DNA of 64,000 nt from an uncultured Gammaproteobacteria bacterium (GTDB lineage: Bacteria > Patescibacteriota > Patescibacteriia > UBA9934 > CAZDDW01). A program made the position numbers and the translations under genes. Below, piece after piece: positions 8,782 to 32,527 of this stretch (the stretch's first letter is position 1; each line of letters starts with the position of its first letter). The notes below the pieces were generated by a model. That model had not been told where the DNA came from, did no database searches, and saw only the letters and a list, made by a program, of their open reading frames with translations. The stretch spans positions 14,214 through 78,213 of the forward strand of contig CAZDDW010000004.1 of NCBI GenBank assembly GCA_964504365.1, given 5' to 3'.

Positions 8782-11352
8782 CTATTCCAGACTGGCCTCG
8801 AGCCGCTCCAGATTGCTCCAGAACTGCTTGGCCTTGTCCGAACGCTCGGGCAAAGAACCCGTCTGTGTGGGGGAATCCGAGGCGACGGGGGTGTTGTCCT
8901 CGGTTTCGTTGTTGGTGGGATCGATCGTCTCGTCGACGTTCGCGTCCTTTTCCCTCTCTTCCAACCACTCTGCGTAGTCTTCCGAGGCCGTGTCGTAGGT
9001 CCAGTTGGCAGCCACGTAGATGTTGGCCAGGAGCGGGTAGAAAACCATGACGCAGACGAGGAGAATCAATGCAACTACACCAGCAACGGTTCCAGCGCCA
9101 CCTGCAACACCCTTTACCCAGGCATTGTCATCGTTGGAGAGCAGACCCCAGGCCAGACTGACCAAGGACCCCCCAAAGAAGAAACAAAGGACGATCAGGA
9201 CGATCAGACCAAGAACGAAGATGCTCCAATGGACATGAAGTCCTTTGAAGACTGCTCCGAACACGGACTTGGGCCCGTGCTCCTTGACCTTGGCTGTCAG
9301 CACCGCTGCACCAACATCATCGACCTCGAGATCCTTCGGGGTGCTCACCACCGGTGTACCGTTCCAGCGCACCTTCCACTTGCGACCCTGCTCGTCGACT
9401 GACAGCACTTTCGCGCCGCGTGGCAGACAAACCGTGCCCACACCTCGTGCGTCATCGCAGGGAACCAGGGTTCCTGCCGCCTGAGCCTTTGCTGCTGGCG
9501 ACTCACTGACCCAGACTCTGTCCTGGTAATCCGTCACCAGGAAAGCGCGCTCCTCGTCGCTCAGGCCGTACTGCGGCGTGTAGCCGAAGTTCGAAGCCGG
9601 AGTATTCGGAAGCATGGCGTAGATCGGAACCAGCGCAACCGCGCCACCGACCATGGCCACCCGAGCCATCACCGCGAAGAACCTGGCCGTTCCACGAGCC
9701 TGCTTGAAGGCGAAAATGGAACCATACCAGCTGTTCGGGTCTCGATCGACCCAACCAGAGGCAGCCACCGTGCTCGGCGCTGCGTAGAAGAAGAACAGGA
9801 AGGCGCTGGCCATTGCGACCATGCAGATGTGATCGTAGCCGAGAATCCAGTTATTGAACATCGCTGTCAGAATCAGCCCAGTCTCGACCAGGATGATCAA
9901 AGCAATGCCAATACCAGTGTTGCGAGCGTGTTTGCCTCGCTCCTGCTCCGACCCCAACTCACTGTCACCTGTCAGCTTTTCCAGCTGTACATAAGCCACC
10001 TGACCTAGCTTGGTGCTAACGTCAGCGACGTGAGCAGCCAGATCGATTCCGCCCTGGATCAAGTACCCCAAGGACCACGGAATTATGGCCATGAACAGAC
10101 CACCGAACGCGTTGGCGCCGATGGAGATCAGCGGATGAAGATCGGTTGCGAAGAGCAAGACGATCCCACTGACCCACATGGAAAAACCGATGACGAACAA
10201 GGCAATAAGGCCAAAGACCACGCTTCGACCGTCGCCTCGAGCGAACTGGACCAGCTTGTCGCCGGCACTGTCAGACGCACCTCGACTGAAATTGACCACC
10301 CGAGTCCAGATGTTCATCCGGTCGGCCACGTCTGCCACTCTTGCCGTGTTCAGCGACCCTTCAGGCTCGAGAAGACCACGGAAACTCTGGACCACCAGAC
10401 CGATGCGGTCAGGGTTGTCCACGCCGGTGTAGCGGCGCTGAATTCCGTCCTTGTCTCCATCTTTGCCAACCAAGTTCATTGTTGCCAAGTGGTCTTCGAT
10501 GGCCTTGATCACCTTTGCCGGCGCGGGCCTGTTCATGCCGTTGCGGATGAAGAAGGAGTCCTCATGACCACCATCATCACGCCACCTCAGCTCTTCTAGA
10601 ACCGCGTGCAACTTCGTGTGCGCATCTCTGGAGAGTTGCTCGAAGGCCGCCTTGACCTTCTTGCTCGGCTCAGGCAGGACACCCATGCAGTGAGGGCACG
10701 GCTGCAGGCTGAGCTGATTCATGGCCGTGTCGTAGTCGATGTAATCGACGGAGTGACCAAACTGCGGAGTATCCGGGATCTGAGGTGCGTTTCTGCCCCT
10801 CTTCGGTGCATTACGCTTCGACAGGAAGTCCATCACCTTGTTCGTGAGCAGACTCTCATCGATGTGCTCGTGCACGGCTGGGCAGGTGCAGGCAGCCTGA
10901 TCGTCTACGCGCACTGCGGTGTGTACGTAACGACCAAGATAGCCAAGCCCCTTGACCCGAGCCACCACCGGAACCAATCCAGTGAAGTCGTCAGGCAGGT
11001 CACCGATGTCCGAACCGACCAGCGCGTCGGCACCACCAGAAGAGATGGCCTCGAGCAGCCGGTTCAGCTTTTCCTCGGCCTGGATGCGCTCTTCCGCGCT
11101 AACGAACAGGTCGTCAGGCAACGGAAAGTCGATCGCGCTCCCAAGACCACGCACTCCCCAGCTAAGCCACTTCACGGCTGCCGGGTTTTTCTGCAGCTTC
11201 TCGAGCGCTTCCCCGAACATCGTGGAAGTCATTTTCTCGGAGCCGTCGCGAATTCCGTCCTCAAGGAAAGGCCAGATGGCCTGCCCAGCGAAACTAGTGA
11301 AGAATGTCACCAGCGGAGCAACCAGCCCCTTTACCATGTCGTTAGTAACCAT
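8782..11352 (-). CDS. large hypothetical polytopic membrane protein (856 aa), GC-rich island 1
   Basis: single long ORF in about 60-65% GC DNA; multiple predicted TM segments in the middle and C-terminal thirds, CxxC/CxHC pairs, acidic C-terminal tail; no recognisable family. Confidence 0.55.
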   Translation of the reverse strand: MVTNDMVKGLVAPLVTFFTSFAGQAIWPFLEDGIRDGSEKMTSTMFGEALEKLQKNPAAVKWLSWGVRGLGSAIDFPLPDDLFVSAEERIQAEEKLNRLLEAISSGGADALVGSDIGDLPDDFTGLVPVVARVKGLGYLGRYVHTAVRVDDQAACTCPAVHEHIDESLLTNKVMDFLSKRNAPKRGRNAPQIPDTPQFGHSVDYIDYDTAMNQLSLQPCPHCMGVLPEPSKKVKAAFEQLSRDAHTKLHAVLEELRWRDDGGHEDSFFIRNGMNRPAPAKVIKAIEDHLATMNLVGKDGDKDGIQRRYTGVDNPDRIGLVVQSFRGLLEPEGSLNTARVADVADRMNIWTRVVNFSRGASDSAGDKLVQFARGDGRSVVFGLIALFVIGFSMWVSGIVLLFATDLHPLISIGANAFGGLFMAIIPWSLGYLIQGGIDLAAHVADVSTKLGQVAYVQLEKLTGDSELGSEQERGKHARNTGIGIALIILVETGLILTAMFNNWILGYDHICMVAMASAFLFFFYAAPSTVAASGWVDRDPNSWYGSIFAFKQARGTARFFAVMARVAMVGGAVALVPIYAMLPNTPASNFGYTPQYGLSDEERAFLVTDYQDRVWVSESPAAKAQAAGTLVPCDDARGVGTVCLPRGAKVLSVDEQGRKWKVRWNGTPVVSTPKDLEVDDVGAAVLTAKVKEHGPKSVFGAVFKGLHVHWSIFVLGLIVLIVLCFFFGGSLVSLAWGLLSNDDNAWVKGVAGGAGTVAGVVALILLVCVMVFYPLLANIYVAANWTYDTASEDYAEWLEEREKDANVDETIDPTNNETEDNTPVASDSPTQTGSLPERSDKAKQFWSNLERLEASLE

Positions 11353-13508: not shown

Positions 13509-14682
13509 CTTTCACAGGGCTGATCTTACGCAACTTCTCAACCAATGACGGGAACACCTCAAGGACATAATCAATATCTTCTTCGACGGTCGAACGACCA
13601 AGAGTGAAACGAACTGAACCATGTGCAACTTCTGACGGCAGCCCCAAGGCCATAATAACATGTGATGGATCTAAAGATGCGCTGGTGCAGGCCGATCCTG
13701 TTGAACAATAAACCCTCTGCGCATCCAGATATAAAAGCATGGCCTCGCCCTCAACATCTCCGATCGACATGTTTACATTGTTTGGCAAACGTTTTGTTGG
13801 ATGACCGTTCAGTCGTACTTTGTCGACCCGATTCTTAATACCTTCAATCAATTTATCACGCAATTTAATCAAACGCTCAGATTCTTTTTTCTTTTCAGAA
13901 TCAGCAATCTCAAGCGCCTTTGCAAAACCAACTATCCCGGCAATATTTTCTGTGCCCGGACGAACACCTGACTCCTGTCCTCCGCCATACATCAACGACT
14001 CAACTTTTAGTGTGCGGCGTTTAAATAGCATTCCAACACCTTTTGGTCCATAGATTTTTGATCCATTCAAAGTCATCATGTCAACATGAATTTTCTCAAT
14101 ATTGATTTCCAACGCCCCAGCAGCCTGACAAGCATCAGTGTGAAAAACCAAGTGTTCGGCCTCGTTATCACGGCGATGCTTCTGAATCAAGTTCCCAATC
14201 TCAGCAATTGGCTGAATAACACCGATCTCGTTATTTGCATAAATAATCGAAACAAGGATCGTATCCGGACGAATGGCAGCCATAACCTTTTTCGGATCTA
14301 CCAGACCGTCAGAATCAACATTCAAATAAGTGACCTCAAAGCCCTCTTTTTCCAACTGCTGAGCCACATGCAACACCGCGTGATGTTCGGTCTTAGTCGT
14401 GATAACATGCTTGCCTTTGTCTTGATTTTTGCGGGCATATCCAAGCAAAGCCAGGTTATCTGACTCAGTTCCCCCAGAAGTAAATATAATCTCATCAGCC
14501 CGACAACCAATTACCTTAACCACGTCGGCCCGAGCCTGATCCAGATCATCTGCCACAGCCTTACCCACGGTATGAAAACTCGAAGGATTACCATATTTCT
14601 CAGTTAAATATGGCTGCATAACCTTGAGTACCTCAGGAGCCAAAGGGGTTGTTGCCGCATGGTCTAAATAAACCTGTTTCAT
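13486..14682 (-). CDS. iscS: cysteine desulfurase (IscS/NifS family, class V aminotransferase)
   Basis: MKQVYLDHAATTPLAPEV...GNPSSFHTVG...FTSGGTESDNLA; PLP-Lys region SGSKIYGPKGVG; active-site Cys in STGSACTS. Confidence 0.9.
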   Translation of the reverse strand: MKQVYLDHAATTPLAPEVLKVMQPYLTEKYGNPSSFHTVGKAVADDLDQARADVVKVIGCRADEIIFTSGGTESDNLALLGYARKNQDKGKHVITTKTEHHAVLHVAQQLEKEGFEVTYLNVDSDGLVDPKKVMAAIRPDTILVSIIYANNEIGVIQPIAEIGNLIQKHRRDNEAEHLVFHTDACQAAGALEINIEKIHVDMMTLNGSKIYGPKGVGMLFKRRTLKVESLMYGGGQESGVRPGTENIAGIVGFAKALEIADSEKKKESERLIKLRDKLIEGIKNRVDKVRLNGHPTKRLPNNVNMSIGDVEGEAMLLYLDAQRVYCSTGSACTSASLDPSHVIMALGLPSEVAHGSVRFTLGRSTVEEDIDYVLEVFPSLVEKLRKISPVKVDDKYFK

Positions 14683-25454: not shown

Positions 25455-25512
25455 AATAGGTTTAAAAAATTAGGTTATGGGCCGAGTTTAATGTAATTTT
25501 AGCAAGATGTCA
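25455..25512 (-). promoter_or_regulatory. promoter for tig: TTGACA-N17-TAAACT fused to upstream terminator T-tract
   Basis: minus strand ...tctttttaTTGACAtcttgctaaaattacatTAAACTcggcc...ATG. Confidence 0.5.
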
Positions 25513-25519
25513 ATAAAAA

Positions 25520-25545
25520 GACCCCTGATACAACAGTGTCAGGGG
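25520..25545 (-). terminator. intrinsic terminator after DGQHR gene (CCCCTGA/TCAGGGG stem + TCTTTTTATT)
   Basis: minus strand cccctcaCCCCTGAcactgttgtaTCAGGGGtctttttattgaca. Confidence 0.7.
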
Positions 25546-25559
25546 TGAGGGGTTGGAGG

Positions 25560-26732
25560 TCAGGGCACGAGAGAAGTGGCCTGCAAAGGCGGTTCTTCCG
25601 GCGTGGCCTGGTTGTCTTCCGGTTTGCTTTCGGGGTCGCCGGGGTAGGTCGCTTCCTCAGGGGCTGGTCGAGAAGAGACCTCGACCTTCCAGAGGTAGTC
25701 ATCCAGTCGCAGAGACAGTGTCCCTGGATTCACAGATGCTGGGTCAGCACGAGTGACCCACTGGAACTTCTTGCCCAAGCTAAGGACTCGCTCCATGTTT
25801 TCTCGGCTGTGATCACGTCCGATCATGCCTGAGAAACGCGGCTGTCGAGACAGCAGGACTAGCAACGTGTCGATTCCGAGGGGTCGGGCCAGCGGGTGTC
25901 CGTCTCGTGTCCAGAAGGCAGGCCAGACCGCAGCCGCGGCCACGAAGAAGTTGACGATGATCTCCACCTGCTCTTCGATCGAGTACCCATGCAAGGAGCT
26001 GGTCTTGCCAACCGCTTGCTTGATGTACTGGAACAAAGACATCAGGTTGTGCCTGTCTCTGGGAAGGCGTCCACGAGTTGCCTGGTCGAAGAAGATCTTG
26101 TTGAGCAGAGGGGAACGCGGGTCCCGGTTCAGCTCAAGAGCGGCCAGGTAGGCTGCTTTCTCAGCGCGATTCTTGAAGCGGTCCACACGGTGAGCCTGAG
26201 CCAGACGAAGTCGTGGGTCAAGCTTCTTGCGCTTGCCCTGCTGGCCGAAGATGGCGATCCGTTGCTTTACCGGCAGGTTCACTGTGGTGGTCACTGGAAA
26301 GGACCAACGACCACGCTGTTCACCATCGAGCATCTCACAGGCAGCCAGTCGATGCTGGCCGTCGTCCACGAGCATGCAGCAGGCGTCCATCAGTTTTTCC
26401 GGATCGTCCTCAACCATGCCGGTCAGGGTGTGGCGCACCTCGTCGTATTCCCAACTGTGAACATCGTCGCCAGAACGCACATCTCCAAGGATGGAATCGA
26501 GCATGACCCCGCCCTCTTCCTTTTCCATGTGCAAGGCAATGCCGATGGCGTGATTGTTGGTCAGAGCCCTGTTCACACCTTCCGGGTGTTCGCCAAAGCG
26601 CAGGACAACAGCGATCTTCATCAAGAGCTCAGCTGAGAGCACGAAGGTGTAAAGGACGGTCTCCTTCTGCATGAACCGAGTAACGTTTGGAATTTCCACT
26701 TTTTGAAGGGCCATGTTTCCTCCCAACAGCAC
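25560..26732 (-). CDS. DGQHR-motif (DndB-like) protein, GC-rich island 2
   Basis: motif LVDDGQHRLAA (the DGQHR signature of DndB/DpdB-like ParB-fold proteins); about 58% GC DNA; 390 aa with acidic/Pro-rich C-terminal tail. Confidence 0.7.
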   Translation of the reverse strand: MLLGGNMALQKVEIPNVTRFMQKETVLYTFVLSAELLMKIAVVLRFGEHPEGVNRALTNNHAIGIALHMEKEEGGVMLDSILGDVRSGDDVHSWEYDEVRHTLTGMVEDDPEKLMDACCMLVDDGQHRLAACEMLDGEQRGRWSFPVTTTVNLPVKQRIAIFGQQGKRKKLDPRLRLAQAHRVDRFKNRAEKAAYLAALELNRDPRSPLLNKIFFDQATRGRLPRDRHNLMSLFQYIKQAVGKTSSLHGYSIEEQVEIIVNFFVAAAAVWPAFWTRDGHPLARPLGIDTLLVLLSRQPRFSGMIGRDHSRENMERVLSLGKKFQWVTRADPASVNPGTLSLRLDDYLWKVEVSSRPAPEEATYPGDPESKPEDNQATPEEPPLQATSLVP

Positions 26733-26790
26733 CGGGCATCACCAGCGTGCCCACACTGAAGAGAATTAACTTAACAGAATAAGCTTATCC

Positions 26791-26830
26791 TGTCAAGTAA
26801 CTGTATAAAAAAAGACCCGAGATTCGGGTC
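26791..26830 (-). terminator. terminator hairpin GACCCGA/TCGGGTC + T7, followed by TTGACA-N17-TAAGTT promoter for the DGQHR gene
   Basis: minus strand ccacttGACCCGAatcTCGGGTCtttttttatacagttacTTGACAggataagcttattctgtTAAGTT. Confidence 0.55.
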
Positions 26831-27203
26831 AAGTGGAATTATCCTGTTGATCAAGGAACTGACGAAGACTGGCTTCATCAGAATGGTCTTGACGTAGCCG
26901 GTCAAGGAAGGAGCCCAGAGTATCGCCTTGCTTGGCGGTCTGTTGGTAAACTTCCAGTATACGAGGCAGGTGACGCTGCAAATCTCCAAGCGGCAGAAGC
27001 TTCTTGGGCTCTGGTTTGCCAACATCCAAAGCTCTTCGCACTTTGGCTGCGAGCCGCTTTTTTATCTCAGGCAGGCGGTCAAGGATTTCCAAAGTACTTT
27101 TGTCGTCCTTGTCCAGGAATTGGCAAAAGGTTCCAGGCTTTCCCGCATCTACCCAGTCTTCGAAAGATTGTTCGATGCGGGGTATGATCAGGTCAGCTAA
27201 CAA
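26829..27203 (-). CDS. hypothetical protein (124 aa), island 2
   Basis: GC-rich ORF, 11 nt downstream of previous ORF stop; no recognisable domain. Confidence 0.4.
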   Translation of the reverse strand: MLADLIIPRIEQSFEDWVDAGKPGTFCQFLDKDDKSTLEILDRLPEIKKRLAAKVRRALDVGKPEPKKLLPLGDLQRHLPRILEVYQQTAKQGDTLGSFLDRLRQDHSDEASLRQFLDQQDNST

Positions 27204-27213
27204 ATTCCACCTC

Positions 27214-27822
27214 TCAGGAGTCCAGCCAGGCCCTGAGCTCGGCTTCGGTTGGGTGGTCTGTGGCTATACGACTGAGGTAATTGTCGAAGCTTTCGTCAGG
27301 AGTTGCCTCTTCGGTGAACCTTGTTGTGATTTGTCCCAGATACTGCTGAAGCACACTGCTTGGAAGTTGTTCTGCTGCTGCCGGCTTTTCCGCAGGCATA
27401 CCACTTGAAGCAACGGTTCCAGGGCTGAGAATACCATCGACCTGCAGCTCCAGGCCGCTACTGTCGGTTTCTTTGATTCGGCCGGTAAGACCATGCTCAT
27501 CGAAACCAAGCACCGTTGACACCCGACCTGCTCCACGTATCTCCTGGTCATCGAACTTGATCCCCTTGATCAAGACACAGCCGCCACTGACCCCTTGGTC
27601 AAGTGCAACAACCAAGAACAGGAACGAGTTTCGCGAACGAGCTACGTACACCTCACCAGGTCGCATTTCCAGCACTGGTTTGTAGATACCAGTGTCGTTA
27701 TCGCTTCGGCGATAAGGAACGGTCTGGGTAATGGTCACCATTCGCCCGTCAGGCAAGGAAAGGGTCAGTCCACGCAAGGTTGTTACCAACTCTTGTACGT
27801 CTTGGGTAAAGATCGAGGTCAT
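27214..27822 (-). CDS. hypothetical protein (202 aa), island 2
   Basis: GC-rich ORF with own TTGACA-N17-TATGGT promoter downstream of helicase terminator; no recognisable domain. Confidence 0.45.
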   Translation of the reverse strand: MTSIFTQDVQELVTTLRGLTLSLPDGRMVTITQTVPYRRSDNDTGIYKPVLEMRPGEVYVARSRNSFLFLVVALDQGVSGGCVLIKGIKFDDQEIRGAGRVSTVLGFDEHGLTGRIKETDSSGLELQVDGILSPGTVASSGMPAEKPAAAEQLPSSVLQQYLGQITTRFTEEATPDESFDNYLSRIATDHPTEAELRAWLDS

Positions 27823-27925
27823 GACTTCATCTCCTTTATGAAGGTAATTACCATATCAGACAACAAAGAGGCTGTCAAACCATATCGTTTGTGTTTACTT
27901 ATTAAAAAAGAGGCACTCAAGTGCC

Positions 27926-30900
27926 TCAAGTTGTTAGAGCAATTGCCCCACGGCTGGCCAGCTTTTGCAAAGTGCGCCAATCATGAGCAAAAAGGTCTAG
28001 TGCAGCCTGGTCTGGCGTCAAAGGTCCTGTGTCCGGACGAGCACCCCATCGTTGGAATTCTCTAAGGATGGTCCTTTTAACTGCCTCGTTATCCAAGACA
28101 GTGCCAGATCGACTGGCTAGCGGGTTGACCACTTCGAAGTCGTTATAGACAACTGTGCTTTGGTTACCAGGCTCAGGTCCTTTTCCTTTGCCGTTACGAA
28201 CGTTGATGTTTCGGGCAAGCTCAAAGGTAAAACGGAAAGCCTCATGGTCTGTAAACCGCGGCTTGTTTCCGTTTAGCGAGAACAGAATGGACCAGAAAGC
28301 AAACTTGGGCTTTGTTTTGTGGCCCTCTCCCTTTGGTACGATCAGACCAGAAAGAGGTAGTACATCACAACCCTCGCTGCGTAAGGCACTTACCCAACAC
28401 TCATAAAGCGTTTCATCAAGAGCCTGTCGGTTAAAGGTCAACCAGATCAAGCCGTATGATTCAGTAACGCGGACGAGTTCACGTAGAATCCGAATGCGCT
28501 CTGGCTCTTGTTGGTCTGCTTCCAGATTGGTCCAATCAATAGCCAAAGAACTTACAGTCAATCGGAACCTGTCTGTCCAATCACTGGGTAGCTGAGAAAG
28601 GCGTCCAACCTCAGCATTAGTGCCTTGGTGTGGGGAAAGGGTTCTGCCAAGATCAACGATCGTTGGGTTGATGTCAATCCCGTAGATCGGTTGGTCAAGG
28701 TAGCGTTCCATGGTCAATGGGCCACAGCCAGCATCAAAGATCAGTTCTGGGCGATCCAGGATCCCTGCTGGGATCAATCCACTGGTTAGCGACCGGGTCA
28801 TGAAACGGGCTATGTGCCCGGAAGCTCCAAAGTCCTGAACTTGGACAAAGCTTCTGGCAAATATCTCCGCATTGGTCCGTATGCCAAACTCGGTTGACAG
28901 TCGACGAATGACGCCGTCCTCACCAGCACCGCGCATGTCAGAGGCGATGAGGTTGACATGGTCGGTTGGAGAGCGGGTTAGGCGCTTTAGTCGAGTACTG
29001 TTGGGAGTAGTGTATTCGTTCCACTCCTCTTCAGTCGGTGGAACACGAGCCCTGAAACGAACCAAGTGTTCCCACTTGCGCTTGACCAGCTCATAGCGAC
29101 TCTCATCAGCAGTATCAACAATGTTGTCGTCTCCGACAAGCACTAGTGACAAGTACTCCACAGGCACAGTCAGACCTTCTCTCCAGAAACGACCAAGGAA
29201 CTGTTTCCAAGGCAACCATCCCTGGGCATAGGCGATCACCTTTACCCCTTGGACAGTTGGGTCGTTTCTGACCAGGACAGACAGGTTGATGCTGTCCGGA
29301 CAGGTCTTCATAGAAACCAGCAGGATCCTGGCACGTGGGTCAGTTCGCCAGCGAGCGATCAAAGAATCTCTCGCGTGACTACCAACGCCAACACTGCCAT
29401 CGAGCAACAAAACAGCTTCGTCGCCGTACCACTCCTTCAAGAGCTTGCCAACCCACACCCCGTCATCATCACCTTTGTAGGGCTGGGTTACCCCCTGGAC
29501 ATAAACGCCGGTAGCAACCACCACCTTATGGTTGTGGAGGCATTCGTCTAGCTGTCTTTTTAGCCAGACAAGCTTGGTTGACAGTCGCCAGTCGCTGAAA
29601 CGCTCAGCCATCTCGTCAGGCCAGTCGTAGGCAGTGTTTCCAGTCAGCACGTGCGGCATGTCCGCTGCATGAAGCAGGTGACGCACCTTGGCACTGGCAT
29701 CGATTCCAATTCCGTTACCATTTCCATTCTCTTGCTCAAGGTCAGGTTCGTGATCCTGAACAAAGCGGTACAACTCAGCATGATCCGGATTCATTTCAAG
29801 TGGCACTGGCCCGAACAGGTCCTCCCACGGCTGTGGGTTGATTGTTGGCAGGTCGCGCACCTCTTGAAGTTCTATGTCCAGGATACAGGTCCCGAAGATG
29901 GCTCGGAGCAAGCGGGGGCTGGCAAACACACCAGAACTGACAAACCGTTCTGGGTCTGGGAACAGGTCTGGTCTCAAGATCGTGGCCAAAGCAGCGCACT
30001 CAACAGGAGAATTCTCCCAAGGAGTTACTGAAAGGGCCAAAACCTTTTTCAGACGTGCCTCAGCACCCTTAATGATCGTCAGACAAGCAAGGGCTCGTTG
30101 TGCCGCGCTTTTTCCAAGGACATTTTTTCCGTATTGACACTCATCCCAAATCACACCATCGAAAGCCAGTTTGCTAAGAGCACTGACAATTTCAGGCCTG
30201 GTAAGGTTTGAATAGCCAACAACGATAAATCTGGCATTCCTTGGAATAAAGGCAACATCACGAATGCCTCGAATTACATGTACCACACCAGGCCGCCTAG
30301 CCCAGGGGAAGTAAATCTTTAGCTCGTTTTCCCAGTTGTCTCGAGCGCCAGGCGCACAAAAGACCAGGGTCTGTTGACAGCCAGCCTGAAGAACGTCAAG
30401 GGCCGCGTAACTGGTTTTGTACGTACCAGTATCTCCAATGTTGAGAACTCGCGACTCGTCTTTGGAACGAGCCAGCCACCAGCGCACATGAAGAGCTGGG
30501 AACATCCGGCTGTTGATCGTTTCGATCGTGTCCGGATAGGTCGTGGTCAAAAGGGCTTCGATGCGTTCGTGAGCGATTTGCCACACCTTACGTTCGTAGT
30601 CGTTGTTTGCTGCGGCCCGCTCTTCTCTTACGAAGTCATGGCCCAAATCAACGTCACGACTGAACCAGTAAAGCAACTCGCGTATACGACAATCAACATC
30701 CAGATCCAGAACCTCGGTTGGAATTCCTTTGATGATTTCCGGGTCGATCACTACCTTGGCGCCTGAATCGGTGCGGTTGGTGTTGAGTGGTCGTACCGTA
30801 ACCACACCCAGATTGGCCCGAAGTTTCATGTCTGCTTGGAGCTTGAGCACCAGGCGCGTCATCCATTCCACGTCTCCGTAGAAGAATTCAGGACAAACAC

Positions 30901-31147
30901 GGACAATCGCGTGAGCCAGGGCTTCGGGGAATGCTTCGAACCGTTCCCAGATAAAACGAAGTAAATCGTTTTTGTTGATTTGCTCAGCAAACAACGACGA
31001 CTTGTTTTCTACAACCTCAGCCAAACACTGATCAAGGTCCTTATCAGTCAGGTCACCACGTTGGTGGAGGAAGCGCAGGAATTCGTACTTCTTCTCGTTC
31101 TCTGGCATTTTGGCTAGCAGCGATACTATTTGTTGATGACTAAGCAT
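27926..31147 (-). CDS. SNF2-family helicase/ATPase fused to C-terminal class-I SAM-dependent methyltransferase domain, island 2
   Basis: helicase motifs IGDTGTYKT (I), VIWDECQYGKN (II), ALSVTPWEN (III), LLVSMKTCPDSINL and QGWLPWKQFLGRFWREG (V/VI); MTase motif I LIFDAGCGPL and IYGIDINP; start set at ATG 31147 (GGAGAGG SD) since the ORF-track GTG at 31240 lies inside the terminator/-35 element. Confidence 0.7.
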   Translation of the reverse strand: MLSHQQIVSLLAKMPENEKKYEFLRFLHQRGDLTDKDLDQCLAEVVENKSSLFAEQINKNDLLRFIWERFEAFPEALAHAIVRVCPEFFYGDVEWMTRLVLKLQADMKLRANLGVVTVRPLNTNRTDSGAKVVIDPEIIKGIPTEVLDLDVDCRIRELLYWFSRDVDLGHDFVREERAAANNDYERKVWQIAHERIEALLTTTYPDTIETINSRMFPALHVRWWLARSKDESRVLNIGDTGTYKTSYAALDVLQAGCQQTLVFCAPGARDNWENELKIYFPWARRPGVVHVIRGIRDVAFIPRNARFIVVGYSNLTRPEIVSALSKLAFDGVIWDECQYGKNVLGKSAAQRALACLTIIKGAEARLKKVLALSVTPWENSPVECAALATILRPDLFPDPERFVSSGVFASPRLLRAIFGTCILDIELQEVRDLPTINPQPWEDLFGPVPLEMNPDHAELYRFVQDHEPDLEQENGNGNGIGIDASAKVRHLLHAADMPHVLTGNTAYDWPDEMAERFSDWRLSTKLVWLKRQLDECLHNHKVVVATGVYVQGVTQPYKGDDDGVWVGKLLKEWYGDEAVLLLDGSVGVGSHARDSLIARWRTDPRARILLVSMKTCPDSINLSVLVRNDPTVQGVKVIAYAQGWLPWKQFLGRFWREGLTVPVEYLSLVLVGDDNIVDTADESRYELVKRKWEHLVRFRARVPPTEEEWNEYTTPNSTRLKRLTRSPTDHVNLIASDMRGAGEDGVIRRLSTEFGIRTNAEIFARSFVQVQDFGASGHIARFMTRSLTSGLIPAGILDRPELIFDAGCGPLTMERYLDQPIYGIDINPTIVDLGRTLSPHQGTNAEVGRLSQLPSDWTDRFRLTVSSLAIDWTNLEADQQEPERIRILRELVRVTESYGLIWLTFNRQALDETLYECWVSALRSEGCDVLPLSGLIVPKGEGHKTKPKFAFWSILFSLNGNKPRFTDHEAFRFTFELARNINVRNGKGKGPEPGNQSTVVYNDFEVVNPLASRSGTVLDNEAVKRTILREFQRWGARPDTGPLTPDQAALDLFAHDWRTLQKLASRGAIALTT

Positions 31148-31224
31148 CAAACCTCTCCGTTCCTTGTATTGCACAAGAAAATATTGAAAAGACCAAGGGA
31201 CCTTTTTAACAGATATAAGCCAAA

Positions 31225-31258
31225 TTGTCAATAAAAACACCCATCCAAGTGGATGGGT
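31225..31258 (-). terminator. intrinsic terminator after sigma-factor gene (ACCCATCC/GGATGGGT + GTTTTTATTGACAA)
   Basis: minus strand ctctaaACCCATCCacttGGATGGGTgtttttattgacaa. Confidence 0.65.
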
Positions 31259-32527
31259 TTAGAGTTCTGTTTCTTGGTTGACAATGGTGTGCAGGTCGCT
31301 GAACCACTGGCCTGGTGGCGCAACCTGATCATCGAGCTCGATTATTGCTTGGCCTCCACCATTGCAATAACTGAATCGGCAGAATTGAGCAGCTCCTGTC
31401 ACCAGTATGGTTTTTTCTTCTTTGTCTATCTTATCAGAGAACAGTAGTCCACAAGCAACTAGTTTCTGATAAAAAGCTTGACCCAGTTGATCCCTGATAC
31501 CAGATACACCATATTCGGCATCGGCTACATGCAATAGTGTTGCGGCTTGAGCGAGGCTGACAGAAATCTCCCAGAACACGGGTGCAGACCCGTTATTTTC
31601 TAGAGGCCGCCTGTCAACGTCTTGTATATCATCCAACTCATCTAGGCTGTTGGCACCTAAGTCAACCAACGCCTGTTTCATTTTATCTTTGGCTCTGATT
31701 TCGAGCTGTCTTATTCTTTCGCGACTGATACCTAGAGATTTTCCAAGTACTCGTAGCGACACTTTTTGCTCTAGGTAGCGGTGCTCAATAATGAAGCGTT
31801 CTCTTTCACTCAAGACGCCCAAAGCCAGTTCGGCTAATGCACGTTGATGCTCATTTTCCCGTGTAGAATCAACAGAATCTTCAGGTGAAGGGGTGTCTTC
31901 ATCTTCCAGCAGATCGATGAACATTACCTCAGAGTCATCCGAGGCTTTGTTGTGCAACGAAAGATCCTGGCCACTTAGACGCATGTCCATTTCGCGCACT
32001 ACTTTTTCATCTACACCGAGCTCGACGGCTATCAAAGACAGGCGCTCGTCTCCTGTTAGATCCAGATTTTTGTACTCTACCTTAGCCCGGGCTCGTCCGA
32101 GCCCACTGAAAACCTTTCTCTGTTTTTGGGTGGTTCCCATGCGGACTTGAGATCGGCTTCTGAGAATGAATTCCTTTATTTCGGCCTTCATCCAGTACTT
32201 GGCGTAGCCCAAGAACCTGACACCGCGGTCTGGATCAAAGCGCGTAATGGCTCGACATATACCAATCAAGGCCTGTTGAAGCAGTTCTTCCGCAGGAACA
32301 TGCCTGTTTGCATAACGCTTTGATAATTTAACAGCGTATTTGATATTTGCATCAACCAGGGCTGAGACAGCCTCTTTGTCTCCTGATTTGGCCAGGGCAA
32401 CCAGATCAAGTTCTTCATTTCGTTTAAGAATACGTACGGTTGGATTGCTAAGGTGCTTTGTTATGATCGGGGACAGGTCTGGTCTTTTGACATAACCCAA
32501 TCTATTCTCCCTTTCAGGTCGGAGCAT
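31259..32527 (-). CDS. sigma-70 family RNA polymerase sigma factor, RpoH (sigma-32)-like, with about 130-aa C-terminal extension of unknown function
   Basis: region 2 FLGYAKYWMKAEIKEFILRSR; RpoH-box-like MGTTQKQRKVFSGLGRA; region 4.2 HTH LGISRERIRQLEIRAKDKM; GC-rich. Confidence 0.75.
   Translation of the reverse strand: MLRPERENRLGYVKRPDLSPIITKHLSNPTVRILKRNEELDLVALAKSGDKEAVSALVDANIKYAVKLSKRYANRHVPAEELLQQALIGICRAITRFDPDRGVRFLGYAKYWMKAEIKEFILRSRSQVRMGTTQKQRKVFSGLGRARAKVEYKNLDLTGDERLSLIAVELGVDEKVVREMDMRLSGQDLSLHNKASDDSEVMFIDLLEDEDTPSPEDSVDSTRENEHQRALAELALGVLSERERFIIEHRYLEQKVSLRVLGKSLGISRERIRQLEIRAKDKMKQALVDLGANSLDELDDIQDVDRRPLENNGSAPVFWEISVSLAQAATLLHVADAEYGVSGIRDQLGQAFYQKLVACGLLFSDKIDKEEKTILVTGAAQFCRFSYCNGGGQAIIELDDQVAPPGQWFSDLHTIVNQETEL

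Follow-up and report, generated by a model that had tools for sequence, protein, structure and literature searches.

A SNF2 ATPase–methyltransferase fusion and its conserved AAG-like partner in Patescibacteria

The subject of this analysis is a single reverse-strand gene, and the smaller gene that follows it, in a 64,000-nucleotide stretch of contig CAZDDW010000004.1 (GenBank assembly GCA_964504365.1, contig positions 14,214 to 78,213), which is referred to below as the window. The larger gene encodes a protein in which a SNF2-family ATPase motor is joined to a class I S-adenosylmethionine (SAM) methyltransferase domain on one chain, and the smaller gene encodes a protein predicted to have the fold of alkyladenine-DNA-glycosylase (AAG/Mpg). 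An earlier note on this DNA, made from the sequence alone, had drawn attention to the fusion. In the sections that follow, the fusion protein, its family, its partner and its neighbours are described in turn, and the pair is read, tentatively, as a DNA-modification module. The coordinates of all features are collected in Table 1, and homologous loci in other genomes are cited by their L numbers.

The fusion gene and its product

The function of the N-terminal half of the fusion protein was probed by motif, profile and fold comparison. All of the motifs quoted in the earlier note were found (GDTGTYKT, DECQ, SVTPWEN, the helicase-C motifs and methyltransferase motif I/II), and motif V (LLVSMKTCPDSINL) and motif VI (KQFLGRFWREGL) are present, as SNF2 membership requires. 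In an alignment of 34 sequences the residues Lys244, Asp335/Glu336, Thr375/Pro376/Asn379 and Gln649/Arg653/Arg656 are invariant, and so are, in motif V, Ser612, Pro617, Asp618 and Leu622. Motif VI thus retains its two arginine fingers throughout, and Thr245 is kept in at least 90% of sequences. Since these homologues share only 38-53% identity, such invariance argues that the motifs are not chance matches. Single-sequence scans with Pfam, PADLOC and NCBIfam were rejected as a basis for assignment, as they gave only sub-threshold matches (15.0 bits against a cut-off of 24.9 for SNF2-rel_dom; 19.6 bits against 21.2 for Methyltransf_11), and profiles and fold were relied on instead. Relatives of the same architecture reach 37-86 bits with SNF2-rel_dom. 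The family profile matches the Sulfolobus SNF2 core (1z63) over both lobes, at positions 250-666, with an E-value of 1.5e-10, and all 50 matches listed in a Foldseek search of the PDB are SWI2/SNF2 enzymes (E 4e-14 to 2.6e-10), including ISW1, SMARCAD1, INO80, Rad54, CSB, Mot1 and RapA. These results predict that residues ~211-700 adopt a SWI2/SNF2 ATPase fold with two RecA-like lobes. The earlier claim of a SNF2-family helicase is upheld by the family profile, by the fold matches and by relatives that exceed the Pfam cut-offs; the same profile and fold place the N-terminal half within SNF2, and so within superfamily 2 (SF2), the point on which that claim could have failed.

The Walker A motif differs from the canonical xxGxGK(T/S) pattern in all 34 members, in that the residue preceding the lysine is Tyr (27 sequences), Gln (4), Phe (2) or His (1), and never Gly. 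P-loops lacking this glycine also occur in other subfamilies from similar organisms (GDVGTQKT, GGTGTMKT, DGMGLYKT), and distant fusions of ~800 residues retain the canonical GxGKT, for example ADEMGVGKT. One explanation is that the motor is a pseudo-ATPase scaffold, which has ceased to hydrolyze ATP upon replacement of the Walker A glycine and serves as a DNA-binding platform for the methyltransferase. The complete lack of Gly at this position in the family, the presence of Gln, Met, Tyr or Thr in other subfamilies from the candidate phyla radiation (CPR) and from DPANN-like organisms, and the canonical loop of the more distant fusions are all consistent with this proposal. In contrast, the Walker A Lys and Thr, the motif II Asp-Glu pair, motif III, and the motif VI Gln and both arginine fingers are conserved over the 38-53% range of divergence, and conservation of these remaining ATPase residues indicates selection for nucleotide binding and hydrolysis. 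A scaffold is consequently considered very improbable. Because all other catalytic residues are invariant, we infer that the P-loop belongs to an altered ATPase rather than a dead one.

The C-terminal half was examined in the same way. The family profile matches SAM-methyltransferase structures (3sm3, E 5.5e-8; 8rdl, ToxA, E 7e-6; 3l8d, E 1.4e-4), and the model of residues 803-957 has the order beta1-alphaA-beta2-alphaB-beta3-beta4-alphaD-beta5-alphaE-beta6-beta7, with a model confidence (pLDDT) mostly above 88. Residues ~796-960 are thereby predicted to form a class I SAM-methyltransferase fold of the Methyltransf_11 type. A search with the pattern [DNS]PP[YFWH] returned zero matches in the 34 family members and in 33 more distant fusions. 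Conserved motifs of C5-cytosine enzymes (PCQ/ENV) are likewise missing from the family, where nothing was seen beyond scattered chance matches, not aligned with one another, in 4 of the 34 sequences, and Pfam DNA_methylase does not match the fusion protein. Profile, model and pattern search therefore agree with the earlier suggestion that the C-terminal domain is a SAM methyltransferase that lacks (D/N)PPY and is not a canonical DNA amino-methyltransferase; the structures returned by the profile are those of SAM methyltransferases and not of another fold. The two catalytic halves are about equally conserved, with mean column conservation in the 34-member family of 0.63-0.64 for the ATPase lobes and 0.60 for the methyltransferase. 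The AlphaFold model of the whole protein has a mean pLDDT of 80 and is low only at residues 89-135 and in a few loops. The N-terminal region (residues 1-210) has no known-domain match in the Pfam scan or in the comparison of the profile with structures, and the last ~40 profile positions of the C-terminal tail are matched only by the closest relatives, in the narrow family.

The start of the gene differs from that of the mechanical open reading frame (ORF), which runs over 27926..31240 (-) and encodes 1104 residues from a GTG; translation from the ATG at 31147 gives 1073. The earlier note had considered the GTG an artefact and the ATG the likely start. In the alignment, all 33 full-length homologues start no more than ~3 residues away from the Met at 31147, and the 31-residue extension that the GTG would add has no counterpart in any of them. 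All of the elements that the note had described upstream were located. Read 5' to 3', the TAA of the upstream gene (31261-31259) is followed directly by a terminator hairpin, then by TTGACA, GGAGAGG, four bases and the ATG, and the GTG (31240-31238) overlaps the final two bases at the 3' end of the hairpin stem. The hairpin has a folding energy of -14.2 kcal/mol (z -3.9), and 0 of 200 shuffled sequences were equally stable. Homologue comparison and the ribosome-binding site therefore support the ATG at 31147 as the true start and identify the GTG as an artefact. A promoter of the fusion gene at the TTGACA box is a weaker proposal than the start codon, as a promoter scan accepted no -10 element after the box, the best candidate being TAAAAA, 17 nt downstream. 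At the other end of the gene, a terminator overlaps the stop codon and is followed by a promoter-like site, and so the fusion gene looks monocistronic. The correction of the start also alters the N-terminal region: fusion of helicase and methyltransferase in one chain is borne out, but the length of roughly 280 residues given in the earlier note had been counted from the artefactual GTG. From the ATG, ~235 residues precede helicase motif I and ~210 precede the first conserved SNF2 block. Annotation should take the ATG at 31147, and the product is best named a SNF2-family ATPase / class I SAM methyltransferase fusion and not a DNA methylase.

Table 1. Coordinates of the fusion gene, its domains and motifs, and neighbouring features in the window
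Feature	Position	Strand	Details
Fusion coding sequence, SNF2 ATPase-methyltransferase	27926..31147	-	1073 aa + TGA stop; 36 homologues, 33 full-length N-termini align on the ATG
N-terminal helical region, aa 1-210	30518..31147	-	Conserved within family; model low-confidence at aa 89-135
Predicted SNF2 ATPase lobe 1, aa 211-400	29948..30517	-	FPALHVRWW block, Walker A, motifs II and III
Walker A GDTGTYKT, aa 238-245	30413-30436	-	Atypical
DECQ of motif II DECQYGKN, aa 335-338	30134-30145	-	Alignment
Motif III SVTPWEN, aa 373-379	30011-30031	-	Alignment
Helical insertion between ATPase lobes, aa 401-520	29588..29947	-	Variable acidic or Gly-rich loop at aa 474-479
Predicted SNF2 ATPase lobe 2, aa 521-700	29048..29587	-	Motif V LLVSMKTCPDSINL; motif VI KQFLGRFWREG (29174-29206)
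Helical linker, motor to methyltransferase, aa 701-795	28763..29047	-	AlphaFold model
Predicted class I SAM methyltransferase domain, aa 796-960	28268..28762	-	Methyltransf_11/25 type; profiles, model, motifs
Methyltransferase motif I IFDAGCGPLT, aa 803-812	28712-28741	-	D805 and G809 invariant in 34
Acidic beta2 motif GIDINP, aa 823-828	28664-28681	-	D825 and N827 invariant in 34
C-terminal tail, aa 961-1073	27929..28267	-	Basic Gly/Lys-rich linker, then two helices ending DWRxLxxLxxRG
Shine-Dalgarno GGAGAGG	31152..31158	-	4 nt upstream of ATG
TTGACA box, possible -35 of the fusion gene's own promoter	31226..31231	-	Sequence
Intrinsic-terminator hairpin of upstream sigma-factor gene	31239..31258	-	ACCCATCC-ACTT-GGATGGGT + T-run, 8-bp stem
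Sigma-70-family gene	31259..32527	-	422 aa, immediately upstream of fusion gene
Intrinsic-terminator hairpin overlapping fusion-gene TGA stop	27910..27927	-	-12.1 kcal/mol, z -4.2
Promoter-like TTGACA-17-TATGGT upstream of partner gene	27850..27878	-	TG before -10; 10/12 matches
Conserved partner gene	27214..27822	-	202 aa; AAG/Mpg-like core aa 1-130 + C-terminal helical module
Partner's ~50-aa C-terminal helical module	27217..27375	-	hhalign
124-aa gene	26829..27203	-	Starts 10 nt after partner stop; carries partner's C-terminal module
Terminator-like hairpin closing partner + 124-aa transcription unit	26814..26830	-	-11.3 kcal/mol, z -4.5
DGQHR-domain (DndB/DpdB-like) gene	25560..26732	-	TIGR03187, 76.8 bits vs 58.85 cut-off

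Family, distribution and chromosomal setting

The protein database contains 36 homologues of the fusion, nearly all of 1030-1077 residues and with 38-53% identity, and the few that are named belong to Candidatus Uhrbacteria or Patescibacteria. When one genome from each of 185,579 species was scanned for the pattern, the narrow family was represented by 18 loci. Where the titles of these loci are informative, all are Patescibacteria-type metagenome-assembled genomes (Uhrbacteria, Andersenbacteria, Parcubacteria), and several third-party annotation (TPA) assemblies are labelled as uncultured Gammaproteobacteria or Saccharibacteria. A search of 1.84 billion representative proteins with the profile yielded 14,240 matches at E <= 1e-3 and 171 at E <= 1e-30, and many of the matching proteins, which range from 780 to 2256 residues, span the helicase and the methyltransferase together. 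Nine of twelve large relatives that were scanned pass Pfam SNF2-rel_dom and Methyltransf_11, and six of those also pass Helicase_C. One cluster of relatives derives from Candidatus Roizmanbacteria, and the contig of one 800-residue member is archaeal, because it carries prefoldin, eIF-6 and ribosomal protein S19e. Scores with NCBIfam and PADLOC models stayed well short of the cut-offs, such that no curated family or defence model covers the fusion, and literature searches found no description of the family. The SNF2-methyltransferase fusion is an established and widespread yet unstudied architecture, and the family described here is an uncharacterised, Patescibacteria-specific branch of this superfamily. 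Disrupted versions were observed at two loci: in L024 (5970-9154) the fusion gene is split into two ORFs, and in L025 (7953-10076) it is truncated at about residue 707 and no AAG-like gene follows. These may reflect decay or assembly errors.

The window is core chromosome of a Patescibacteria (Uhrbacteria-type) bacterium, as it contains dnaA, dnaN, trigger factor, nfo, a membrane pyrophosphatase, RNase HII, PBP1, PNPase and PolA. The gene order rnhB, pyrophosphatase, one variable gene, fusion, partner and, further on, DGQHR gene, tig and nfo is shared by at least seven species of the window's clade. Identity across these species is ~74% for the pyrophosphatase, ~50% for the fusion and ~47% for trigger factor. 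There is no integrase or transposase around the fusion locus in this clade. Searches with tblastn gave no plasmid match and two phage matches only, both to generic helicases, and among viral models a fold search matched nothing but plain SNF2 helicases. A mobile-element origin was rejected on the grounds that there is no plasmid match and that the phage and viral matches are generic. Given the conserved synteny, the lack of plasmid matches and the generic nature of the phage matches, the fusion gene therefore behaves as a vertically inherited chromosomal gene and not as a mobile island.

The base composition of the region was also considered. In every clade relative, the fusion, partner and DGQHR genes exceed the flanking housekeeping genes by 0.1-0.3 in GC content at third codon positions (GC3), and this offset (window 25500-31150; L005, L008-L013) is independent of genomic GC. 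Recent horizontal transfer was rejected as the source of the high GC3, as the same offset is found in all clade relatives and other lineage-specific genes of the window are GC-rich as well. Other GC-rich patches of the window lie at 8-12, 40-42 and 52-54 kb, and an 856-residue ORF at 8782-11352 (-), within the first of these, has no Pfam match at E <= 1e-5. The cumulative GC skew reaches its minimum at ~34600, where the genes change orientation from pyrophosphatase (-) to rnhB (+), at a distance of ~3.5 kb from the fusion gene. The dnaA and dnaN genes are located at 19.2-22.0 kb, 13 kb from this minimum, and the replication origin may lie near 34.6 kb rather than beside dnaA.

The AAG-like partner and other neighbouring genes

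In the window the partner gene lies 103 nt downstream of the fusion gene. Among loci that extend past the 3' end of the fusion, a partner of ~200 residues is encoded directly downstream on the same strand, at distances of -4 to 235 nt, in 22 of 23 (17 of 18 when redundancy is removed). Shorter versions of 126-136 residues are encoded beside distant fusions, or within a few genes of them, in four of four contexts (fusions of 1012, 1112, 1115 and 1384 residues). The Pfam family Pur_DNA_glyco (PF02245) matches three of four partner members, with a best E-value of 1.2e-5, and about one third of 46 partner homologues carry a precomputed Pur_DNA_glyco annotation. The AlphaFold model of the partner has a pLDDT of 91.6, and the only significant PDB matches in Foldseek are to human AAG (E 5e-5, probability 1.0), followed in rank by formyltransferase C-terminal domains, which share the AAG fold. 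Alignment with the human AAG catalytic domain by hhalign (92%, E 6e-7) used a human sequence that was partly confirmed by a separate alignment. Model and alignments predict that the partner has the AAG/Mpg fold. In addition to the fold, the two share the blocks PG-x-VY, GGCVL-IR and GPG-V-x-ALG. In contrast to AAG/Mpg, the core of the partner is only ~125 residues long and is without the 23-residue AAG insertion, an extra helical module is present at the C-terminus, and NCBIfam scores are 25-30 bits against cut-offs of 116-182.

The pocket of the partner was compared with that of human AAG residue by residue. In the column of the catalytic Glu125, the 46 partners have Glu (20), Lys (11), Gln (9), Val (2), Arg (2) or Asp (2), and the residue in the window is Val35. 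Tyr127 is kept as Tyr or Phe, His136 falls in a gap, Tyr159 aligns with Pro, and the position of the intercalating Tyr162 is occupied by Arg within a conserved PRxRN hairpin. The partner probably still engages a flipped nucleotide, and probably not as a canonical glycosylase.

Glu in only 20 of 46 partners, and Val here, fits a binder rather than an enzyme, which is a point in favor of the chief rival explanation, alkylation-damage surveillance coupled to nucleotide excision repair. In such a system the degenerate AAG-like partner would act like the alkyltransferase-like (ATL) proteins, flipping an alkylated purine without excising it and handing the site to the UvrABC or AP (apurinic/apyrimidinic)-endonuclease pathways. 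The motor would be a DNA- or RNA-polymerase-associated translocase comparable to CSB or Mfd, and the methyltransferase would be a SAM-binding regulatory or a protein-methylating domain. ATL proteins themselves provide the precedent, in that they flip out the damaged base and bring in nucleotide excision repair (PMC10779285). Furthermore, UvrA and/or UvrB are encoded within 10 kb of the fusion in four loci of one clade (L001, UvrA and UvrB upstream; L003 and L019, UvrB; L004, UvrA), and one distant subfamily has, independently, the order UvrA, fusion, two genes, mini-AAG, UvrC. A gene for an AlkB-like 2-oxoglutarate (2OG)-Fe(II) oxygenase lies upstream of the fusion and divergent from it in L028 (1257-1904), nfo is three genes away from the pair in the window clade, and both CSB and RapA are among the fold matches. 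However, the uvr linkages within the one clade may represent a single inherited synteny, leaving only two to three independent cases, and there is no uvr gene in the 64-kb window. In addition, no UvrA- or UvrB-interaction domain was found, and invariant SAM-binding residues are hard to explain for a domain that is merely regulatory. Damage surveillance is thus judged unlikely.

The partner appears to be linked to other small proteins through its C-terminal module. Homologues of the 124-residue gene adjoin the fusion gene in both clades (hhalign 97.7%), and the 124-residue protein shares with the partner C-terminus the ~50-residue helical module (hhalign 97.5-98.2%), the consensus of which is roughly L.R.M..I...Y, a gap of 6-9 residues, and F..FL......C.TE..L...L. 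The module profile also matches HNH_repeat C-termini, DUF4379 zinc-finger N-termini and a helix-turn-helix (HTH) N-terminus, all encoded next to fusions. The module was seen in the window and in L009-L011, L018, L022 and L025, and the small module proteins are 124-136 residues long. A database search with the module profile returned one 46-residue fragment only, the profile being too short for the size of the database. The possibility that the module is a copy of Pfam HNH_repeat was rejected, as the similarity seen by hhalign is confined to the C-terminal unit of the HNH_repeat proteins. Because one terminal tag is found on unrelated proteins encoded around one large ATPase, it is tempting to speculate that the module is a docking domain.

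Two further kinds of gene recur in the neighbourhood. The DGQHR-domain gene has a GC3 of 0.68, the highest of the region, and its synteny with the fusion and partner is confined to the clade of the window; neither dnd nor dpd genes were observed in its surroundings, and its membership in the module is uncertain. HNH_repeat proteins recur beside fusions (L030, 6625-19273; L026, 5795-8017; L028, 5012-6535; L009-L011). L030 has seven paralogues, and in an archaeal contig one is encoded upstream. They could be DNA-recognition subunits or members of a selfish family that is abundant in these genomes.

These genes enter into another alternative, anti-phage or foreign-DNA defence with restriction-modification logic, in which the methyltransferase marks self and the motor translocates in the manner of Type I or DISARM systems. 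The AAG-like protein would be the effector, a restriction glycosylase, with the DGQHR and HNH_repeat proteins as accessory or specificity subunits. A SNF2 helicase together with a methyltransferase is typical of DISARM, BREX and Dpd; the fusion itself has a weak PADLOC match to DpdE (E 3e-3, 13 bits), and relatives match ZorD, DrmD, DpdE and the MADS methyltransferase mad2. The mad2 matches fall in the methyltransferase region, in four relatives, with E-values no better than 2.5e-10, and the fusion itself has none. The nearby DndB/DpdB-like gene, the recurrence of HNH_repeat paralogues beside fusions in CPR and in one archaeal contig, and the presence of AbiEii and a transposase around L030 are also consistent with defence. 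Nevertheless, what the SNF2 region shares with defence models is generic, with scores that fall far short of the curated cut-offs, and on this basis membership in DISARM, BREX, Dpd, Zorya or MADS was rejected. PADLOC found no Drm match (DrmA/B/C) for the fusion and six neighbouring proteins, and relatives score 20-89 bits against NCBIfam DrmD cut-offs of 610-950; PglZ, BrxC and BrxL are not among the same six proteins, and among the neighbours DpdA and DpdC were not found, the DGQHR-domain gene being present. The stable position among core genes across species, the lack of integrases and transposases in the window clade, the lack of plasmid matches with phage matches to generic helicases only, a rate of evolution similar to that of trigger factor, and an effector whose catalytic Glu is not conserved all argue in the same direction. 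Defence is accordingly regarded as quite unlikely.

The gene immediately upstream of the fusion belongs to the sigma-70 family; its RpoH-like scores are below curated cut-offs, and it has an extension of ~130 residues after region 4. At this position close relatives carry an unrelated protein of 610-765 residues with no known domain. The upstream families F6, F12 and F55 (450-765 residues) were rejected as a third component of the module, having no Pfam domains and no homologue in the window; F6 is unrelated to F12 and F55, which share only a short C-terminal stretch. The adjacency of the sigma gene, together with rpoD-dnaG near the fusion in L003 and the presence of RapA among the fold matches, would suit a RapA-like transcription factor with a methyltransferase acting on RNA or protein (RNA polymerase, sigma factor or a nucleoid protein), and Methyltransf_11-type enzymes do include rRNA and tRNA methyltransferases. 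Yet a strong terminator stands between the sigma gene and the fusion gene, the adjacency occurs in only two lineages, with the unrelated 610-765-residue gene in close relatives, the NCBIfam RapA model does not match the fusion, and the AAG-like partner would be left unexplained. A role of this kind appears improbable.

Proposed function and comparison with known systems

The reading that we favor, tentatively and at somewhat less than an even chance, is that an ATP-driven motor and DNA methylation are combined, with an AAG-like base-flipping partner, in a fixed two-gene module. First the motor would bind duplex DNA and spend ATP to move along or distort it. Next, this movement or distortion would open the target to the methyltransferase tethered to the motor. 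A nucleobase is the most likely target and, as the amino-methyltransferase motif is missing, methylation would probably fall elsewhere than on an exocyclic amino group. The AAG-like partner would flip out and recognise, or further process, the purine concerned. Docking of the partner, and of other small proteins, by way of the shared ~50-residue helical module is a further possibility in the window clade. The two-gene module would serve a vertically inherited Patescibacteria function in genome marking or maintenance.

Enzymes of the SNF2 family are known to move along duplex DNA or to distort it, and proteins with the AAG fold to bind purine nucleotides that have been flipped out. DNA is the putative substrate of the fusion because characterised SNF2 enzymes are double-stranded DNA translocases and because of the fold of the partner. 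Coupling of ATP hydrolysis to methylation is proposed by analogy with Dnmt5, in which a SNF2 ATPase step gates DNA methylation (bioRxiv 10.1101/2020.01.05.895227). The chemical target of the methyltransferase and a physical complex of fusion and partner are likewise presumptive.

Several observations weigh against this proposal. The nearest solved relatives of the methyltransferase act on small molecules or are uncharacterised, no target-recognition domain is recognisable, and DPPY and C5 motifs are lacking. To our knowledge no DNA methyltransferase has been described in the Methyltransf_11/25 subgroup, which is the main weakness. The replaced Walker A glycine could slow or abolish ATP hydrolysis. 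The partner has no conserved catalytic Glu and no counterparts of His136 and Tyr159, which makes its biochemical role uncertain, and the close outgroup locus L030 has no AAG-like gene.

A more far-reaching version, which we regard as a long shot, is that CPR bacteria and apparently some DPANN-like archaea possess a prokaryotic remodeler-coupled DNA methylation. The mark would be other than N6-A, N4-C or C5-C, for example on a purine ring nitrogen, a degenerate mini-AAG would read or process it, and adaptors would dock on the motor through the ~50-residue tag. If such a non-canonical mark exists, it would represent a new DNA modification chemistry and a write-read system fixed in an episymbiont core genome.

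The atypical Walker A motif, the conserved AAG-like pairing, the core-chromosome setting and the generic-only similarity to defence systems are new beyond the earlier note. Coupling of a SNF2 motor to a methyltransferase is understood in few cases only, namely Dnmt5 and defence systems with separate subunits. Here the fusion is fixed, vertically inherited and paired with an AAG fold in very small genomes that retain few dispensable genes. Should the methyltransferase act on DNA, methylation chemistry would extend beyond the three canonical enzyme classes, and should the pair survey lesions, it would constitute a bacterial SNF2-based route into excision repair. In either case, the fusion and its partner make up a defined system of two proteins, amenable to expression and assay.

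The comparison with DISARM, BREX and Dpd that the earlier note had proposed yielded only generic SNF2 similarity. In these systems, as in the fusion, a SNF2-type helicase is linked to a DNA-modifying enzyme, and there is weak similarity in the SNF2 core. Their helicase and modifying enzyme are separate proteins, however, and their known DNA methyltransferases are N6-adenine or C5 enzymes. The fusion is located in the core chromosome and not in an island. Type I restriction-modification enzymes and the helicase-methyltransferase fusions of phages and conjugative elements (P1 DarB, 'polyvalent proteins') also combine an SF2 translocase with a methyltransferase in one complex or chain. The known examples use N6-adenine methyltransferases with DPPY and non-SNF2 or DExH motors, and are found on mobile elements; in contrast, the fusion lacks DPPY, has a SNF2 motor, and has no plasmid match and only generic phage matches.

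RapA (HepA) shares the bacterial SNF2 core, as reflected in fold matches to 8spg, 6bog and 8t0l (E ~5e-11 to 1.5e-10). RapA has no methyltransferase and possesses N-terminal Tudor-like domains, whereas the N-terminal 210 residues of the fusion are helical and match nothing. ATL proteins resemble the partner by analogy only, in being a repair fold minus its catalytic residue; the partner has lost the Glu, and uvr genes recur nearby. The folds are unrelated, ATL having that of O6-alkylguanine alkyltransferase and the partner that of AAG.

Similar to the fusion, Dnmt5 of Cryptococcus neoformans carries a SNF2-family ATPase and a SAM methyltransferase on one chain. The Dnmt5 methyltransferase is a C5-cytosine enzyme that is N-terminal to the ATPase, whereas that of the fusion is C-terminal, of the Methyltransf_11 type and without C5 or amino-methyltransferase motifs. 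Dnmt5 is moreover eukaryotic and has no AAG-like partner. Methylation by Dnmt5 requires the ATPase step, and the enzyme acts on naked DNA without nucleosomes (bioRxiv 10.1101/2020.01.05.895227). By analogy, Dnmt5 could be the best model for how the fusion protein works.

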